Assembly (NCBI RefSeq): GCF_018977255.1
Contig: NW_024704742.1
Location: 122,390,001-122,454,000, forward strand
Source of the DNA: Callorhinchus milii
Lineage: Eukaryota
DNA: 64,000 nt
Direction: 5' to 3'
The position numbers and the translations under genes are program-made. Positions within the stretch are counted from its first letter, which is position 1. Each line of letters begins with the position of its first letter. Of the stretch, positions 22,794 to 63,540 are shown piece by piece. A model generated the notes under the pieces. That model did no database searches and was not told the origin of the DNA. It saw nothing but the letters and a program-made list of their open reading frames with translations.

Positions 22794-23106
22794 TTAATAA
22801 TAATCCTTGCATTTGATATAGTGCTTTTCACGTCGGGAGGATGTCCCAAAGCGCTTCACAGAACACATTGTAAAGTGAATTGACTGTATATTTGTGGGCG
22901 AACGCGGCAGCCACTTGCGCACAGCAGTGTCCCACAAACAGTCGTAGATTGAAAATGACCAATTTATTATTGTTTTGTTTTTTGGAGGGATTATTATTAG
23001 GCGTGTGGAGTGAGGAAACTTGCCCAAGGTTTCGCCCTGCCTGGAATTGAACTCAGGTCTCTCGCTTGCAAAGCGAGTGCTCTAACCACTGAGCTACAGG
23101 TCTCCA
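22794..23106 (-). mobile_element. Same tRNA/Deu/L2-tail SINE, short variant
   Basis: Reverse complement aligns by eye along the whole 63215-63540 copy. Confidence 0.9.
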
Positions 23107-26753: not shown

Positions 26754-28107
26754 CATAGCACAGAAACCGCCTTGGTCAAGGTCACTAATGACGTCTTGAC
26801 CATCTACGACCAGGGCTCCCTCTGCCTCCTCGTCCTCCTTGACCTATCGGCCGCATTCGATATGGTTGACCATGCTATCCTCCTCCACCGCTTGTCCTCC
26901 CACCTCAACCTTCAAGGCCCTGTCCTTGAGTGGTTTAGGTCCTACCTCTCCCACCGTCTTCATTTTGTTTCCACAAACGGCTTTTCCTCCACCCCCCGCA
27001 CTGTCTCGTGCGGTGTCCCTCAGGGCTCTGTCCTTGGTCCCCTCCTCTTCACCCTCTATATGCTCCCCCTTGGTGACATCATCCGCAGACATGGGGTTAA
27101 CTTCCACTTGTATGCGGATGACACCCAACTCTACCTTTCCTCCTCTACCCTCAACTCCACGACCACTGATGTCCTGACAGCTGCCTGTCCGACATCGAGT
27201 CCTGGACGAGAAACAACATTTTTCAGCTCAATGTGCGCAAAACTGAGGCCCTCCTGATTGGCTCACGTCAGCGCCTTCGCACCTCAGGCGCTGACAGCAT
27301 CAGCATCCAAGGCTGCACTCTCCATCTCTCAAAGCCGGTCAGGAACCTCGGTGTTCTGTTCGACCCTGAGCTGTCCTTTCTTCCTCATATCCGCACCACA
27401 ACTGGCACCGCCTTCCATCACCTCCGGAACATCGCCAGACTACGGCACTACCTCACCCCTCACGCTGCTGAAACACTGCTCCACACCTTTATCACCTCAA
27501 GGCTGGACTATGGGAACTCTCTCCTCGCCGGCCTTCCCGCCACCTCCCTCCACAAGCTGCAGGTCATTCAGAACTCTGCAGCTCGTGTACTGTCCCGCAC
27601 CAGGCTTCGCGACCACATCACTCCCACCCTCGCTCGCCTCCACTGGCTCCCCATCCCCCAGAGGATCGAATTCAAGATCCTCATCCTCACCTACAAGGCC
27701 ATTCACAGCCTTGCACGCTCCTACTTCTCCGACCTACTATCCCCCTACCTACCTGCCCACACCCTCCATTCCTCTGGCTCCGGTCTGCTCCACATCCCCC
27801 GCCCTAACCGCCCTTCTATCAGTGGCCGGGCTTTCAGCCTCTCAGCCCCCAGGCTCTGGAACTCTATCCCCCAGTGCCTTCGCCGCCTCCTCCCTTTCCT
27901 CCTTCAAGGCCGGTCTCAAGACCTTTCTCTTCAACCGTGCCTTCAGCTCCCCTCTCGACTCTCTACCGCCTCCTCGCTCCCTCCCTTCCCTCCCCTCACC
28001 CTGACCATTTCCCCCCTGCTTGGGTCCCGACCCAACTGTCCAGCGCCTTGGGACGTCCTCCCGATGTGAAAGGCGCTCTATACATGAAATCTTGTTGTTG
28101 TTGTTGT
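26754..28107 (+). mobile_element. Young 5'-truncated L2 LINE (RT domain to 3' tail), frameshifted
   Basis: [29 protein letters not shown] and YADD (27111-27122); frameshifts near 27180 and 27885; (TTG)n tail. Confidence 0.95.
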
Positions 28108-28848: not shown

Positions 28849-29729
28849 AATAACAACAACAACAAGATTGCATTTATAGAGCGCCTTTCACGTCGGGAGG
28901 ATGTCCCAAGTTGGTGGACAGTTGGGTCAGGACCCGAGCAGGGGGGAAATGGTCAGGGTGAGGGGAGGGGAGGGAAGGGAGGGAGCGAGGAGGGGGTAGA
29001 GAGTCGAGAGGGGAGCTGAAGGCACGGTCAAAGAGAAAGGTCTTGAGACCGGCCTTGAAGGAGGAAAGGGAGGAAGCGGCGAAGGTACTGGGGGATAGAG
29101 TTCCAGAGCCTGGGGGCTGAGAGGCTGAAGGCCCGGCCACCGATGGTAGGGCAGTTGGGGCGGGGGATGTGGAGCAGACCGGAGCCAGAGGAACGGAGGG
29201 TACGGGCAGGTAGGTAGGGGGATAGTAGATCAGAGAGGTAGGAGGGAGCAAGGCCGTGAATGGCCTTGTAGGTGAGGATGAGGATCTTGAATTCGATCCT
29301 CTGGGGGATGGGGAGCCAGTGGAGGCGAGCGAGGGTGGGAGTGATGTGGTCCCGAAGCCTGGTGCGGGACAGTACACGAGCTGCAGAGTTCTGAATGACC
29401 TGCAGCTTGTGGAGGGAGGTGGCGGGAAGGCCGGCGAGGAGAGAGTCCCTGTAGTCCAGCCTTGAGGTGATAAAGGCGTTGACCAGTGTTTCAGCAGCGT
29501 GAGGGGTGAGGTAGTGCCGTAGTCTGGCGATGTTCCAGAGGTGATGGAAGGCAGTGCCAGTTGTGGCGCGGATGTGGGGGAGAAAGGACAGCTCAGGGTC
29601 GAACAGAACCCAGAGGTTCCTGACCGGCTTTGAGAGGTGGAGAGTGCAGCCTTGGATGCTGATGGTGTCAGCGCCTGAGGTGTGGAGGCGCTGACGCGAA
29701 CCAATCAGGAGGGCCTCAGTTTTGCGGAC
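28849..29729 (-). mobile_element. Young 5'-truncated L2 LINE, inverted relative to 27233-28107
   Basis: ORF 29028-29774 is near-identical to ORF 27233-28069; same 3' tail. Confidence 0.95.
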
Positions 29730-31180
29730 TTTCAAAAAAGAGAAGGGAGTTTCTCTCAGTATCCTAGCAACCAATCTCCCAGATAAAATTGGGTCACTGA
29801 TGGTTGTTTGTGTGACACCGTTGTGTGTTTGCTGCTGTATTTGCCTACAAATACAAAATCACTAGCCTTAGTAAAATTCTGTGAAGTCCTTTGAGACAAT
29901 TCAATGTCCTGATAAGACACTAGGTTCAATGCAAAGAATTTTTTTGATTAATATATATAGATCTTTTTTGTGTGTGTGGTGTTGTGTGGGGAGATGGTAC
30001 CTAGAGCAAAATAATAGAACAAGTAGACTCGTCCTCAATCTCTGAATAGTAATAATAATTGCAATAATGATCTAGGCATTTGATATAGAGCCATATCACA
30101 TTGCTGAGATGTCTCAAAGCACTTCATAGATTTTTACTTTGAAGTGCAGTGGCTATTCATTTGTAGGCGAACCCAGCAACCAATTTGCGTAAAACAATGT
30201 CCCACAAACAGCCGTATCGTAAGTGACCAATTTTACAATATAGTACTGATGAACAAAATTATAATGTCACACCAGGGTTAACACTTTGACACAGTCACTC
30301 TCTCTGGTTGCTGAATTGCATTTGCCAAACATGTGTTCCAAGTATTGAGTCATGGTGTATAAGCATTGCTCTTGCCCAACTTCTAAATTAGTTAAAGGAT
30401 ATTTCAGCCGATCAGTGTGTAAGAAACAGTGTCTGTCCACATTAGTGATGCTCTAAATGAGTTGCTTTGTTAAGAGACCTTTTGGTATCTTATCAAAATC
30501 TATCTGCAGAGGTACAGTACTGAGGTTTTCCTGTCTTAGTGAGTTAAATATTAGTGATAGAAATGATAAAACTCAAATAACCCCAAATTTACTGTCATAA
30601 TCAGATTTCTGGCTTTTTCCCATCAGGTCAATCACACACCCCAATCACTGTTATTTACAGCTGTAATCAACTGATATTTAAAAATGGATATGAGGATGCT
30701 CAATGATTCATGGGTGAGGCAAGGTGCATAACTCACAGTAGATGCAGCATTAATTGATTTCAAAACCCCGTAGCTGGTAATTTCTGTGCTTTCGAGATTT
30801 CAAAAAAGAATTTGTCCCAGCTCAAGATGAACAATTATTTAGCAAGAGAGGCTATGATAATCATAAGCTGATAATCATGAAGGGCGGGGGTGTTCACAGA
30901 ATTTACTGTAAACGGTCGTGTCTTAAACTTTGTTGGTGAATACGGCAGGAAATTTTGCCCACAGCAATGACTCACAAACAGCCAAGAAACATGCCTTCCA
31001 AAGCCTTGCTGGCTGATGCTCATTGCTGTGTGGATTCTGGCCGTTATTTGATCAAATATACATGTTAGGCCGATAGGCTATAGTTACCTGGATTAGATTA
31101 ATCACCCATTTTACACAAGTAAGCAAACTCGTCTCCAGTCCTGAGGATCAGATTGCAAATGTTAAATAAATGTTATATAA

Positions 31181-32071: not shown

Positions 32072-33399
32072 TCTTCCATTATTTCATCAGTGACACCCTG
32101 AAGGTCCCATGTGAAGGGCCATGGACCTGATCCACAATACTAATGACAATCCTTGCATTTGATGCAACACCTTATACCATTGTCCAAACTACTCACAGCA
32201 CTTCACAGGATTTCACTGTGCGTTTGTAGGCGAATGCAGCACAAATTTGACCACCGCAATGTCCCACAAACAGCCCACAAACAGTGAATGACCAATTTTA
32301 TTTGGGGGAATTGTTGACCAGGCACAAGTGACGGACTAGCTACCTTGTAAGGGCTCGGGATTTCCATGGACAATGGGAGCCACCAATTCATAGAAACAAC
32401 ACACAAAGGCACGGCCCCACCCTCCCAAATCAATATCAATCAAGCCCTGGCACTCCAACAACCACCTCCTCCCCCTGGGCTCGGCATGAGAGCGGCTGGC
32501 CAGACTTCTAACGCACAACTACCAGAATTTTGACCTCGCAACAGCTTTAGTAAGTTGAGAGGAAAAGATGAGGCACGATCAGGGGGTAAAAAACTAGTTG
32601 CTGCAAAATGTACCACATTTTGAAACCAAGCCACACGTCATAAAGGCGGTACAAAATGCCTTTGTTTCTGTCCAATAATCCACCCAACAAGACAATACAA
32701 GTCATGCAATTTTTTAAATAAAAAATGAACAGGTAAAAATCTAGGTTTCAGATGAACACAAGAAAACTCACCCTATCTGCATGATTGGCAAGAGCTGTGA
32801 GTCTTTTAAATAGACAAATTCAGTCTCCACCAACCAACAGAGCACAATTGATACAAGGTGAGCTGGTTTGCGTCTGTGACAACGATCCATTAGGGTTGCA
32901 CAACTAGACTTGGTGTCAGTCAGAAAATTAATAACCCCTCCACATCCTCTTTAACAATGAAGGCAATTTATTCTTTATGCTTGAGGTGCAAGGAAAATCG
33001 AAGCTTGTTCTTCACCTTGTCAGATTAATTGTGGTTAGTGATTTTTCCTCATTCACAAATCCAGACAGAGATAGAAGGGTCAAAATTACAATATTGTTAA
33101 CACATTGTTTTACTTATTCAAGAAATGTCATTGAAATGTAACGCTCGTCCCCCCCCCAACTGCTGAATAAAAGTAACTCTCAACGTCCACTCCTGGTCTT
33201 CAATCTTCTCCTTTTGGAATATGGTTCCACAGGCACAGGTTTCCCACCAGTGTTCCATCCAAGTTGCCTTTGTTTATGTACGAAGCTTATCGGTGAGTGT
33301 GGCCAGGCAACTGGACAGTAGAGGGTGATACAGTGGAGCGTCACCTGACTACCACACATAAACACTAATAATAATAATCTTTGCATTTGATCTAGGCCC

Positions 33400-33730
33400 A
33401 GTCGCTCCCTCCGCTCAGCGGGCTATGGCCTGCTTCATGTCCCCCAATTCGCTCACCCCACTATTGGTGGGCGAGACTTCTGGCACTCTGCCCGCACCCT
33501 CTCGAACTCGATCCCGCAATCTCTCCGCCTTGCCCCCTCTCTTGCCACCTTCAAGACCCATTTCAAGACCCACCTCTTTGACCGTGCTTTCGATCTCACT
33601 GCTTCCTCCCCAGCCCTCCACCTTCCCCCACCCCGACCCCCACCTCAGGTCCAAAACTCTCTCTGTCCAGCGCTTTGGACGTCCTCCCGACATGGAAGGC
33701 GCTATACAAATATAATTTTGTTGTTGTTGT
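33400..33730 (+). mobile_element. L2 3' fragment
   Basis: SFKTHFKTHLF-type end with GGACGTCCTCCCGAC tail and (TTG)n. Confidence 0.8.
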
Positions 33731-34978
33731 TTATCACGTTGTTGAGATGTCACAAAGCGCTTCACGGGATATATTGTAAAGTAAATTGACCGTCTATTTT
33801 ACGGGGGAAATATGGAAGCAAGCCATTAGCACACAACAGTGTCCCACATACAGTCGTGGATTGAGTGACCACATTTTTTTTNGAGGGATTATTACACCCA
33901 AAAAGCGATCCACCAATCGACTCTCAATGGGGTTCCAACTTACTACTGTAGGGAAACTTGCCTAAAGTTTCACCTCGCCCAGGAATCAAACCAAGGTCCT
34001 CTTGTTTGTGAGGCGAGTGTGCTATCCATCATGCTACGGTATTCCGACACACTACAAGTGCTGAATGGGCACAATGATCAATAAATCCATCCAATTTTAA
34101 CCTCACTCACCCAGGAAAGGCTGGTGTCAGTTTAGCTTCCCCAATGCAGCTTCTGCTGAGAAAAACAAACAGCACGGACCAGGTTCAAACCAGACTCTTT
34201 AATTGTGAACATTGTGCCTTTGCTATTTCAAAGAAATATGGGATCTTTCTCCCAGTTATCCTACCTTAGATTTCTCTCTTCGTCCAAATTTACCCCAAAT
34301 TTGAATTCTTTTGCAAATCATCTCATTGCTCATTACAGGATATTTCCAGTACAGATTAGCTGCTGTTTTCTGCCTTTTTCAGCACCATTTGCTTTCATTT
34401 CTAATGTAATGTAATACATACTGTATTTTGTAAAGTGCTTTCTCTGTGTAGCTTTTCAGTGGCTGACTGTAAAAGATTCTAGTCACAAAACTGAGGCTTT
34501 CTCTCCATTTTGGGGCTTTCTCTTGCAGCTTTTACAGAAGCTACCTCACTTGAAAGGGTGTTATATAATTGCAAATTGATGTTCTTGTATTTAGAAAGTT
34601 AAAAATAACCTGTTTTTTAAAAAAATTGTAAATCAAACAAGTACAATATTTTAGAATTTTTTTTTTTAACCCACATATTCTACTCCACGCCCTCTCTAGT
34701 AGAAGGAATAATAGTAATAATATACAGCTCCTTTCATGTCGGCAGGACGTCTCAAAGCTCATTACATTTTTTACTGTAAAGTATAGTGGGTAACCCTAAC
34801 CCTAAGTATTTTGTAGGTGAACACATCAGTCAATTTGCATCCAGAATTTAAACACATGTGTAATACGCACTTAAAGTGGAAACACACAGCTCATTAGCAG
34901 ATTTATGATCCTGGGTTTGCAAATTCAACAGAAGTCTCTCCAGCGTTGTGGAGATGGTATCAATTGTTTGGCAGCTTA

Positions 34979-34997
34979 TGGTCACCAGAGGGGGCTA
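34979..34997 (+). promoter_or_regulatory. Weaker CTCF-like motif
   Basis: TGGTCACCAGAGGGGGCTA has two core mismatches to the consensus. Confidence 0.35.
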
Positions 34998-37900
34998 TCC
35001 TATGAAGAATACCCTAAACACCTTCCAGAGACAAATGTTACAAAACTGACTGTCCATTGGCAGAGGGTATCATCACTAATAAAGTTCTCATCAATGATCT
35101 CTGATCTAGTAGATATTGCAGTTGGTTGTGTTCTGTGTTGGGAGTAGGGTTGCTTCTCTGGTTGGTATTCCGGGGGGAATGGTTGCTATTCTAAAATAAG
35201 ACAGCACTGACTTTAGTGTAGCGTCAGAAAGCGTCGTAAAGCCCTTATGATGTCCCTAAGCCCCAAGAATTCCTATGGTTTTATCCTGGGTTGCTCACAG
35301 CAGTGTCCGGAAGATTAATCTTTAAATCCTGGACACTCTAGGACAATCCGGGAGGGTTAGCAATCCTAATTGGGAGATTAATAAATGGAAGAATGAGTAA
35401 CAGTCAAGATAAGGCCTCTGCAGGGGTAAAGGTGTTAGCCTGACTCTGTTGGTAGCACTCTTACTCTTTCCTCTGAGTAATAAGGTTGTGAGTTCAAAGC
35501 AATGTTGGAATTTTGAACTCACAGTCTCTACTAGATGCATTATTGGATGAGATATTAAACCAAAGTCCTGTTTGTCTGTTCAGGTGGACTTTAAAGATCC
35601 CATGGCACTATTTGAGAAGGAGTTTCTCCGGGGTCCTGGTCAACAGGTGCCTTTGTATGTTGTTTCTATGAATTGGTGGCTCCCATTGTCCATGGAAATC
35701 CCGAGCCCTTACAAGGTAGCTAGTCCATCACTAGTGCCTGGCCAACAATTCCCCAGATAAAATTGGTCATTCACTTCATGGCTGTTTGTTGGACAACAAC
35801 AACAACAAATTGCATTTATATAGTGCCTTTCACAGCAGGAGGATGTCCCAAGGCCCTGGACTGTCGAGGGTTTGCACCCAAGCTGAGGGTTGGATTTGGA
35901 AAGGATGAGGGGGGAGCAAAGATGATGGAAGGCGTGGTCAAAAAGGTAGGCCTTGAGACAGACATTGAAGCAGGCAAGGGAAGGAATGCGGCAAAGGGAC
36001 AGTGAGTGGGGGCAGAAAGACTGAAAGCCCAACAGTTGAAAGTGAGACGGCAGGATGGGGATATTGCTGTGTGCAAAATTGGCGACTGTGTTTCTGGGAA
36101 ACAGCTATGGAAAATAGCTGACTTTTTTGGTATTTACATTTTGGGGATTCACAACTTATTGATTGTTGACTTTGCAATATCCGAGTTGCAATTTAATCTA
36201 GTTGTGAATATCACAAATTAAACTAATTGCCTTAAGTATTTTTCAGTAATAAAATCTGATCTGACTACAACTTAAAACAGTGATGGTATAAATGTTCACT
36301 CCTCACTTCCTTCACTGTACCATCAGCAGTTATTAAGCCTTTGTCCTATGGAATTCTCTCCCAAAACCACTTTGCCTTGCTACATGTTGCAAAAAAAACC
36401 TTTAAAGCATATGAGTTTGGTCAACTATTTGGTCGATGCCATTTCATATTGTTTCTATGCTCGCTGAGCACCTGTACATTGATCAAATGCTTTAAGATAT
36501 TCTTTTGTGTAAAATATACTGTATGAATGCCAGTTGCTATTGAGTTAACAACAACAATAAATTGCATTTGCATAGTGCCTTTCACGTCGGAACAACATCA
36601 CAATCCATTGGGCAGTTGGGGATTTGGGCAGTGGAATTACTTCAACTAATTGGACTCACTCCACCATATTGTTATTTTTTGTATAATAATCCATGTATTT
36701 AATCCATGATGGGCCTTATTACTTCACTGAAATGTCTCAAAGTGCTTCACAAGATTTACTGTGAGTGTGAAGTGATTGTGCAGGCAAACATGGAAACCAA
36801 TTTGTGCACAGCAATGTCTCACAAGCAGCCATGTGAGTGACCAATTTTATTGTGCACCTGAACATACAGATAGGATCTCAGTTTAATGTCTCCTCTGACA
36901 ATAGCCCCTCCGACAATCCACTACACTCCCAGCACTGCATTGGTGGGTCAATCTAGCCTTAGATTGGTAATTCATAGTCGTGACACGGAATCATAGAATC
37001 ATATAATTATATAGCACAGAAGGAGGCCATTCAGCTCATCTTGTCTGTGCCGGCTCTTTGAAAAGATCGATCCAAATCAATCCCACTCCCCCACTCTCTC
37101 CCCACAGACCTGCAAACTTGTCCTCCCAGAATAATTATCTAATTTGGGAACGTGGGTCTTGAATAATAATAATAATCCTTACTTTTGATATAGCGCCTTA
37201 TCACGTCTTAGAGATGTCACAAAGCACTTCACAGGATATACTGTAAAGTGAATAGGCTACATATTTTGTGGGCGAAATCCATGACCTTCAGACTCAGAAG
37301 TGAGAGTCCTACCAACTGAGCAAAGCTGACACCATAGTGAAATGTAGTGTAGTAACATTAATTGTTTACCATTAATCCTACAATGGAATATGTGAATTGG
37401 TGCTAACACCATTCAAGGTACGGTTTAATGACTCAGCAGAAATAACTCAACTGACAGAAATCTGAAAGATACAATTACTGAAAGTCCAAATACCTGCCCC
37501 CCCACCGTGATTTAAGCAGAAGAAATTCCTATTGTGGTCCAGTCCATGTTTTCTGTCGGAACAACCTGGCTTGCAATTACTGATCCTTGTTTAGATAATA
37601 GGAGCTCATTAGCCGAAATGTTTGACAGGATGTTAGAGAGCTGATGATCTGATATTTATTCAGCAACGTCCTGATTTTCTAAATCCCATTTGGGGGAACT
37701 TTGCCAAACAGATTCGAACGTCTTGCCAACTGCAACCTGGCAGCTATAGATATCACAGAAGCACTTTAATGAGGTCTATTGCTACGCAGTTGAGCACACA
37801 ACAGCCTGACAGTCTTCCTAACAGACAAAATAATTGGTGGATGTCAGACTTCGTGAAATCTATTTCACTCCCTTCGTTTGTGCTCTGGCATCCTACTGCC

Positions 37901-51300: not shown

Positions 51301-52717
51301 ACGGCTGTCACTGAGTTAGGCTTGTGGATTCAACCACCATGTCAGAACTTTGAGCTCACAGTCTTGATTAACACCCCAAAGCAGAGACATCTTCTTTAAT
51401 ACTAAAGAGCCCTTGTCTAATTGCTCATGGTTCATTTACCTGACACTGGAGCATCTTCGTTTCTCTCCATTAAATTGCCTCTGCAGACCCGTATGTTGCT
51501 GTGATCAGAACTGTATGCAGTACTCCAGGTGTGGCCTATCACTGGCTATATAGTTTGAGTGTGACATTTGGGGATCTAAACTCAATTGATTTAGCAATAT
51601 AGCCCAGTATCCTGTTTGTCTTGTTTTTACTGCTGCGCACTGTTCTAACAGTGAACGGTGAGTCACTTTGAAGCGCTATGACACATTTTGATGATGTGAT
51701 AAGGTGCCGTATCAAATGCTGGCGTTATTATTATAATCAACAAGAGTAAACTTAATGCATTTGTAAAAGAGAAGCAAAAAAANGGGTGTAAGAGAGGCAA
51801 TTAGGATGGAGAGAGCCTCATGTGGAGTATAAACATCTGCACAGACTAGTGAATAGTCTGTTTCTGTGGAAAGGATATAATGAAGAACATTAGATGTTGG
51901 CCCTCAAGATTTTATTAAGGGAAAATAGTTAGTGATGCCTCCTTAGCATCTGAGCTCATTTCCAAACGATAATTAAATTCATAGAACTGGACTGGGGATA
52001 TGGAACAAAATATTATTAGTTATAATTGTTAAGTTGCTGTATGTGGATTGTTGACTGGTGTACTGGCAGAATGATAAAACCCCTGAGTAAACTGGGTCGA
52101 ATGTGAGTTCCATCATAGATCTCACATACTCTATGCATACACTCCAGTACAGTGTTGTGGGAGTGCAGCATTGTTGGGAGGTGCCACCCTTCGGATGAGA
52201 TGTAAAACCAAGGGCCTCTCTACCAGTTCAAGTGGATGCTAAAGATCCCATGGCACTATTCAAAAAGAGAAGGAAGTTTCTCCTAGTGTCCTGGCCAACA
52301 ATCCCCCAAATAAAATTGGTTATTCACTGTTTGGCTGTTTATGGAATTACCATGTGTAGATGGAATGCATGGAATTCTCAGTTTGGTTTGGATACTCTTA
52401 AGCTGGTAATGGGTTTCGTCATGTCTCAGACAGCTGGTTGACCCCCCAAAAATGTTGTGGAACACTGTTGTATGCATATATGGCTCCTGCATTCACCTAC
52501 AACATAGAGTACTGCACTCCACCATAAATCCTATGAAGCTCCTTGAGATGTCCTCCTGAGTTGAAAGGCACTATTTCAAATGCAAGGGCTGTTTAATTTG
52601 TTCAAAAAGTGAGAGAATCAAGTTGGAGAAAAGGAAATAAAGCAGGAAGCCCTCAGGATCACATGCATCAACTGAATGCCATTTTGGTGACCCAATCATT
52701 AAAAGATATCATGGCAC

Positions 52718-63214: not shown

Positions 63215-63540
63215 GTGGAGTCCTGTAGCTCAGTGGTTAGAGCACTCGCTTTGCAAGCGAGAGACCTGAGTTCAATTCCAGACAGGGCGAAACCTTGGGC
63301 AAGTTTCCTTACTCCACACGCCTAATAATAATCCCTCCAAAAAACAAAACAATAATAAATTGGGCATTTTCAATCTACGACTGTTTGTGGGACATTGCTG
63401 TGCGCAATTGGCTGCCGCGTTCGCCCACAAATATACAGTCAATTCACTTTACAGTGTGTTCTGTGAAGCGCTTTGGGACGTCCTCCCGACGTGAAAAGCG
63501 CTATATCAAATGCAAGGATTATTATTATTATTATTATTAT
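63215..63540 (+). mobile_element. Full-length tRNA-derived SINE (tRNA head + Deu-type core + L2 tail), short variant
   Basis: A-box TAGCTCAGTGG, B-box-like GAGTTCAATTCC, core CTGTTTGTGGGACA.TGCTGTGCGCAATTGGCTGCCGCG, tail shared with L2, (TTA)n end. Confidence 0.9.

Follow-up and report, generated by a model that had tools for sequence, protein, structure and literature searches.

Why should the same 90-nt sequence be joined twice, at exactly the same nucleotide, to a short interspersed element (SINE)? The question arises from a 64,000-nt stretch of the Callorhinchus milii genome (NCBI RefSeq assembly GCF_018977255.1, contig NW_024704742.1, positions 122,390,001 to 122,454,000 of the forward strand; hereafter the window, with positions counted from its first base), in which an initial annotation read the arrangement as a candidate retroelement that inserts site-specifically into a Deu-type SINE, and gave as the alternative a one-off templated repair, in which a break in one SINE was mended by invading the SINE 3.3 kb away and copying its flank. 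The alternative turned out to be the best explanation. The locus is an ordinary genomic scar of a known event class, not a new jumping gene; it is very probably the record of one local rearrangement and not of a mobile element, and this rearrangement was probably a repair-mediated duplication made by homology-guided strand invasion and end joining, as in the class described by Pace et al. (2009, PMC2671141).

The two copies of the 90-mer lie at 35647-35736 on the forward strand and at 32323-32412 on the reverse strand. A search within the window found them identical at 87 of 90 positions (E = 6e-39), with the three differences already counted in the initial annotation falling at 35657/32402, 35727/32332 and 35733/32326, and returned no third match better than E 0.17. 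Without gaps, the similarity runs on into SINE sequence to give inverted arms of 108 nt each (32305-32412 and 35647-35754; 96% identity, 4/108 differences), which are 3234 nt apart; the two window copies part at 32332 and 32304. The arms form the sole high-identity pair in the window with at least 30 bases unmatched at any third place (1 pair found). The SINE joins either 90-mer at the identical base, as the annotation had it and as the alignment agrees. At 35.6 kb, the 5' part of the acceptor SINE (35431-35645, + strand; Deu-type, from its tRNA-like head to the break point) ends in the left copy of an 11-nt direct repeat (35635-35645, the acceptor's retained end), followed by an extra G at 35646, the 90-mer, the right copy of the 11-mer with one change (35737-35747), which opens a 59-nt SINE body (35737-35795, + strand), the 3' end of an L2-type long interspersed element in reverse orientation (35796-36055, - strand) and a short SINE remainder (36056-36095, + strand). 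The G is a 1-nt filler at a non-homologous 5' junction, without microhomology to the bases upstream in the donor, and no poly(A) tail is present at the insert, again as claimed. The 11-nt duplication, found at the 35.6-kb copy only, matches at 10 of 11 positions, its variable base being T on the left, C on the right and T in the donor at 32 kb. There, the 90-mer belongs to unique genomic flank and directly adjoins the 5' side of a 5'-truncated SINE that retains its body and a decayed (ATT)n tail (32136-32322, - strand). As a reference, an uninterrupted paralogous SINE (52139-52347, + strand) has the empty site, expected at about 52280-52305, at 52290, and further SINE copies of the window, likewise paralogous, are empty too. 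Structurally, the acceptor SINE had been called intact on both sides of the insert; both parts are indeed present, but the left one lacks about 43 nt internally, near 35541, and the right one is cut after 59 nt by the L2 3' end. A 6-bp hairpin at 35719-35735, at the 3' end of the insert, is without counterpart in the donor copy, and a quasi-palindrome correction could account for the difference at 35733.

Whether the 90-mer recurs elsewhere was assessed in other individuals. Sequencing runs matching 32323-33390 numbered 13, all under one organism label, and four of them held 79-89% of the 116 words of that stretch. Contigs from three of these four (X2, X3 and X5, from other individuals, with 885-963 million letters or about 900 Mb each) and from X6, which belongs to another study, were aligned to 32295-33390 at 80% likeness; the listing covered 32 of the 1,674 pieces and 21 of the 100 loose ends, and contigs lose rare variants, so that the results are strong rather than final. 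In all three sets, a single contig covered the 90-mer together with about 1 kb of unique flank (32305-33378 in X2, 32333-33390 in X3 and 32305-33390 in X5), at depths of 6.51 (X2), 9.14 (X3) and 7.57 (X5) as against 7-12 for the longer unrelated contigs listed. By comparison, depths of 1,300-79,000 were reached at the two ends of the examined stretch, by the edge of the SINE and by the L2-like tail. No diverged relative covering the 3' half of the 90-mer at 80% or more was found in X2, X3 or X5, and because the summed depth of all aligned contigs in the bin 32332-32368 equals that of the one contig in 3/3 runs, a diverged 90-mer family is absent at the 80% threshold. Identical short copies, which could be merged into the contig, are bounded by depth at no more than 4.6 (X2), 3.5 (X5) and 13.7 (X3) under the most generous assumption, a rough bound in that depth is not copy number and that three short low-depth records (3.9-4.55) were left out of the X2 baseline, which would otherwise put the X2 bound at about 7; 50 identical copies were calculated to lift the mean depth to 23-42. 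The evidence, then, is of two copies in the window and one contig per set in 3/3 sets, with room for a few identical copies. The continuation of the 32323 copy for about 100 nt beyond the 90-mer, noted in the initial annotation, is real, but what begins there is a single-copy flank at least 1 kb long (32413-33378, one contig per genome set) and not the body of an element. Pieces of 43-58 nt with 82-86% likeness at 32394-32451 appeared in all three sets without the 3' end and were treated as chance or unrelated. X6 gave patchy cover and none over the 90-mer, and its 32 G>A changes at 32650-32958 are the pattern of a base-converted library, not genomic variation. The window disagrees with each of the three whole-genome sets at 32442 and at 32471, which points either to an error of assembly or to the sequenced animal's allele.

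From this arrangement we infer that a break occurred, which way the copying went, by what pathway the repair proceeded and how far the copied tract reaches into the SINE body. A double-strand break would have opened the SINE at about 35645, and its right-hand end would have paired with the inverted, 5'-truncated SINE 3.3 kb off through some 60 nt of SINE-SINE similarity. Extension would then have run through the end of the donor SINE stub and 90 nt into its unique flank, with about 100-150 nt synthesized in all, before the strand was released and joined to the left end without homology, gaining 1 base. Two features that look like the marks of targeted insertion would follow from this course of events: the donor SINE ends 11 nt upstream of where the break fell, so that the copied stub repeats the end kept by the acceptor and passes for a target-site duplication (TSD), and the identical insertion site is passed down rather than targeted twice, because a copy that spans the donor junction carries that junction with it. 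By simple arithmetic, a dispersed copy would lie this close by chance in a genome of about 0.9 Gb with a probability of around 1e-5. The last bases of the insert had been said to mimic those upstream of the target, and CTAGTG in the 35.6-kb copy does resemble the 52-kb SINE, but the acceptor itself reads CCGGGGT upstream and the 32-kb copy reads CTTGTG; the best reading of the likeness is that a few further bases at the donor truncation point are SINE-derived or microhomologous.

How far the copied tract extends bears on the SINE bodies, which the initial annotation judged visibly more diverged than the 90-mers. That difference did not reach significance (6 mismatches in 59 aligned nt, or about 5 events, versus 3/90; Fisher p 0.16-0.27), and none of the 45 pairings of 10 other window copies (21-41% different) is as close as the two bodies are to each other. 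The right body is off the window-built consensus at 3 of 59 positions and off the donor body at 6 of 59, as compared with 102/548 off consensus for paralogues and 19/95 for the 5' part of the acceptor; most of the difference between the acceptor's right part and the donor is accounted for by an exact 11-nt tandem duplication in the donor body (32263-32284). The 32-kb body is nearly as close to the 52-kb copy (7/59) as to its partner. Part or all of 35737-35795 may have been copied from the donor as well, and the tract, judged by these alignments, may reach into the SINE body but not past the L2 interruption, where the resumed SINE (36056-36095) is not donor-like (13/38 differ, 1 derived base in common). 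On the clock of PMC5499810, the 4/108 differences between the arms give a rough age of 16-18 Myr, which cannot be relied on if there is conversion between the arms. Nothing indicates a function.

Repair-mediated duplications were defined as inserts of at least 50 bp that split a transposable element (TE) and have a single donor (Pace et al. 2009, PMC2671141). Among human cases, the donor lay within 5 kb in 824 of 1,136 and the mean length was 162 bp; of 39 proximal cases inspected, none had poly(A) and two combined microhomology, a TSD and filler. TSDs of 4-21 nt, filler of 1-68 nt and an inverted example were reported, along with 80 cases in zebrafish and others in chicken, at densities of 0.08-0.65 per Mb of TE DNA (PMC2671141). 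Sharks were not part of that survey, in which the word 'shark' has 0 occurrences (PMC2671141). The locus has every feature of the class that can be fully tested: an insert of 90 nt splits a TE whose parts, allowed to lie within 30 bp on the consensus, overlap by 11 nt; the donor is well inside 5 kb; and the junctions consist of a 1-nt filler and SINE homology on the 3' side, without a poly(A/T) tail. Genome-wide uniqueness is nearly demonstrated as far as the three contig sets go, with room left for a few identical copies. Junction types, size and distance all fall within the ranges of Table 1 and the text of Pace et al., with two differences: the published duplications pair by 2-9 nt of microhomology, whereas here about 60 nt of SINE-SINE similarity was available, and the apparent TSD, unlike theirs, is explained by the truncation point of the donor SINE (PMC2671141). 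As it stands, the locus is one more short repair duplication, of little significance, from a lineage outside the 2009 survey, and at the published densities a repeat-rich genome of about 1 Gb would be expected to hold tens to a few hundred of them. It also carries a caution, namely that a duplication spanning the junction of a truncated repeat imitates a fixed 3' junction, a TSD and 5' truncation all at once.

Several observations weigh against a repair duplication of this kind. A contig with the 35.6-kb 5' junction was absent from 3/3 sets among the pieces listed, and the residual depth does not fit one, the contigs having been aligned to 32295-33390 and not to the 35.6-kb locus. Graph cleaning is a cause of lost short connectors in contigs. 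X3 has no piece linking the donor flank to the donor's own SINE, and because it likewise drops short connectors into SINE sequence, the missing junction is weak evidence. The variable base of the 11-mers is a further difficulty: simple copying would predict a right 11-mer like the donor's, and the observed T/C/T needs one later substitution together with a shared T, a base seen in just one of the eight other window copies with a letter at that site. TSD scores for insertion versus inversion (4, 4 and 1) were inside the null, and with a clear TSD in 0/5 control SINEs the test is blind and separates neither. In favour of the duplication, contig ends at 32333 (X3) and 32305 (X2 and X5) adjoin the arm-parting positions 32332 and 32304 (chance about 0.002 for two positions), which suggests that both copies exist in the animals of X2, X3 and X5; it is from such ends that we infer the 35.6-kb copy in other animals. 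The X2 and X5 contigs run unbroken across 32332, 32326 and 32317, with 3 and 4 mismatches that are not positioned; the two copies seem identical over 32305-32334 in these animals, and the mismatches would fit three acceptor-type letters. This means either that an insert-like donor haplotype is segregating, or that there is conversion between the arms, or that these animals lack the insert and the breaks stem from alleles of the donor; contig ends that differ among animals suggest polymorphism or gene conversion between the inverted arms.

What, then, of a mobile element? A sequence-specific retroelement lacking long terminal repeats (non-LTR), or a Tx1-type element's non-autonomous passenger, with this SINE position as its target would account for the fixed 3' junction, the 11-nt direct repeat, the 5'-shorter copy and the missing poly(A), and TE-targeting elements of this kind exist in Tx1-Mar and SINEU-3, with TSDs near 16 nt (PMC4494074). 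Xenopus Tx1 in Tx1D and crocodilian Tx1-Mar and SINEU-3 in Mariner-N4_AMi are found, as here, inside a repeat, have a short direct repeat and lack poly(A) (PMC4494074). SINEU-3, however, has 347 near-full-length copies, 313 of them beside the target, and partners encoding reverse transcriptase (RT), in contrast to two linked copies here, one of which is native flank (PMC4494074). In the three genome sets, diverged copies are absent and identical ones number a handful at most; the other window SINEs are empty at the target site; the two copies are 3.3 kb apart and inverted; and the 10/11 repeat occurs at one copy only and is equally explained by the donor stub. The long copy runs on into a 1-kb tract of unique DNA that offers neither the 5' half of the target nor an open reading frame (ORF): among the 21 matches listed, none is a SINE 5' half ending at the target beyond the long copy (- strand), and the ORF combining RT with an apurinic/apyrimidinic-type (APE) or restriction-like (RLE) endonuclease, which the initial annotation proposed to seek 5' of the long copy, did not appear in ORF and Pfam searches. 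L2-like coding sequence between the copies is confined to an unrelated fragment (33418-33528), Rfam gave 0 matches over 32100-33400 at E 1, and RNA folds had z scores of -1.93 for the 35.6-kb copy and of -0.02, 0.71 and -0.59 for three donor folds, the donor strand not being significant. Exact matches of the 90-mer were found in 0 metagenome and 0 viral contigs, and of the SINE site in 0 metagenome contigs, weak negatives from non-animal collections, and a literature search, without comparison to Repbase or Dfam, found no SINE-targeting element of cartilaginous fishes. As far as the contig data show, with two copies, no SINE 5' half and no coding capacity, the SINE-targeting retroelement first proposed is hardly credible, although a SINE-parasitising element, if real, would be worth pursuing. 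An equally faint prospect is a very small family, of which a few near-identical, short, non-coding copies were placed in this Deu-SINE by a Tx1-type partner and are hidden by contig cleaning. Capture coupled to retrotransposition is somewhat less remote, if still quite improbable: SINE cDNA or read-through RNA from the upstream RAB3-type gene, on the same strand as the donor and its SINE tail, would have been reverse-transcribed or template-switched onto its neighbour and integrated in the SINE. The donor flank and SINE do lie in sense to that gene and the SINE ends in an L2-type tail, and the right SINE part is unusually near consensus (3/59 as against 102/548 in paralogues), yet the insert is without a tail, the SINE beyond the L2 interruption is not donor-like at 13 of 38 positions, and nothing would bring a retrocopy to within 3.3 kb of its source, in register with the homologous SINE position.

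A 3.2-kb inversion between inverted SINEs, with duplicated ends, deserves closer comparison with the repair duplication, and we consider it unlikely. Under it, the 5' half at 35.4-35.6 kb and the body at 32.1-32.3 kb were once a single full-length SINE, and what now lies at 35737 was the second, truncated SINE; SINE homology would have formed one breakpoint and end joining the other, leaving the 11-nt and 90-nt duplications. Inverted duplications at inversion breakpoints have been described, and inverted arms bracket a 3.2-kb segment here, with one junction homologous and the other not. This history yields exactly the same present sequence, and it places T in the left repeat and the 32-kb body and C in the right repeat without any later mutation. 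That advantage is lost if copying took in the SINE body too, which the closeness of the bodies suggests; the inversion takes more steps (a crossover plus end joining), and no TSD links the head flank at 35.4 kb to the tail flank at 32.1 kb (score 1, null mode 0-4), in a test that is itself blind. A related and only slightly better version, still a minority reading, has the arms marking a small inversion and still exchanging sequence, the exchange being suggested because two animals show no break where the window copies differ. Finally, the 35.6-kb insert might be private to the sequenced animal, as a polymorphic and recent duplication of the donor haplotype, or an assembly chimera, with the contig breaks elsewhere being donor alleles. 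The junction contig missing from 3/3 sets and the unbroken X2 and X5 contigs, whose unplaced mismatches allow a polymorphic donor, speak for it, but X3 also loses its connector from donor flank to SINE and the absence is weak, 4 substitutions in 108 nt and a filler base are atypical of a chimeric join, and a polymorphic insert would remain a repair duplication; we regard this as very improbable.

We take the acceptor SINE to be probably SacSINE1-CM, a Deu-SINE of the elephant shark, a name that follows the published structural description of the family and is supported by a 3' end that two SINE types share in the window. SacSINE1-CM and CmiSINEs have 218,294 and 302,861 copies, respectively, and the two window types fit their description (PMC5499810). 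Like the window SINE, SacSINE1-CM has a tRNA-like head, a 3' end in common with the younger tRNA-SINE family and an L2-type tail, and its divergence is given as 22.4%, compared with about 19-21% for the window copies (PMC5499810). It differs from the 90-mer in being the host repeat and not the insert, and no variant containing the 90-mer is described in the passages of that study examined here (PMC5499810). A decayed TSD after the tail of the 32-kb SINE was considered and rejected, as the sequence aligns with the (ATT)n tail of other copies. The L2 end that interrupts the acceptor matches the RT-bearing L2 tail at 26.7-28.1 kb and an L2 piece at 33.5 kb, its right edge (36055) having been placed by eye.

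Genomically, the locus is intergenic, between convergent genes on the + strand (7.7-18.9 kb) and the - strand (46.2-48.3 kb). Pfam identified PDEase_I in the former (last exons, to about 18.9 kb) and Ras in the latter (last exons, at 48.2 and 46.2 kb); presumably these are PDE4 and a RAB3-type gene. Over the donor, a 55-codon ATG ORF with a proline run (32366-32533, + strand) has 0 Pfam families at E 0.1 and is probably due to chance. Single N bases occur at 33882 and 51783. Elsewhere in the window, inverted L2 3' parts at 27230-28105 and 28852-29732 (881 nt, 93.5%, about 750 nt apart, the second inside a Deu-type SINE) are probably two young insertions, and two tRNA-headed SINE copies at 22795-23106 and 63216-63527, 97% identical over 312 nt, point to a young subfamily.

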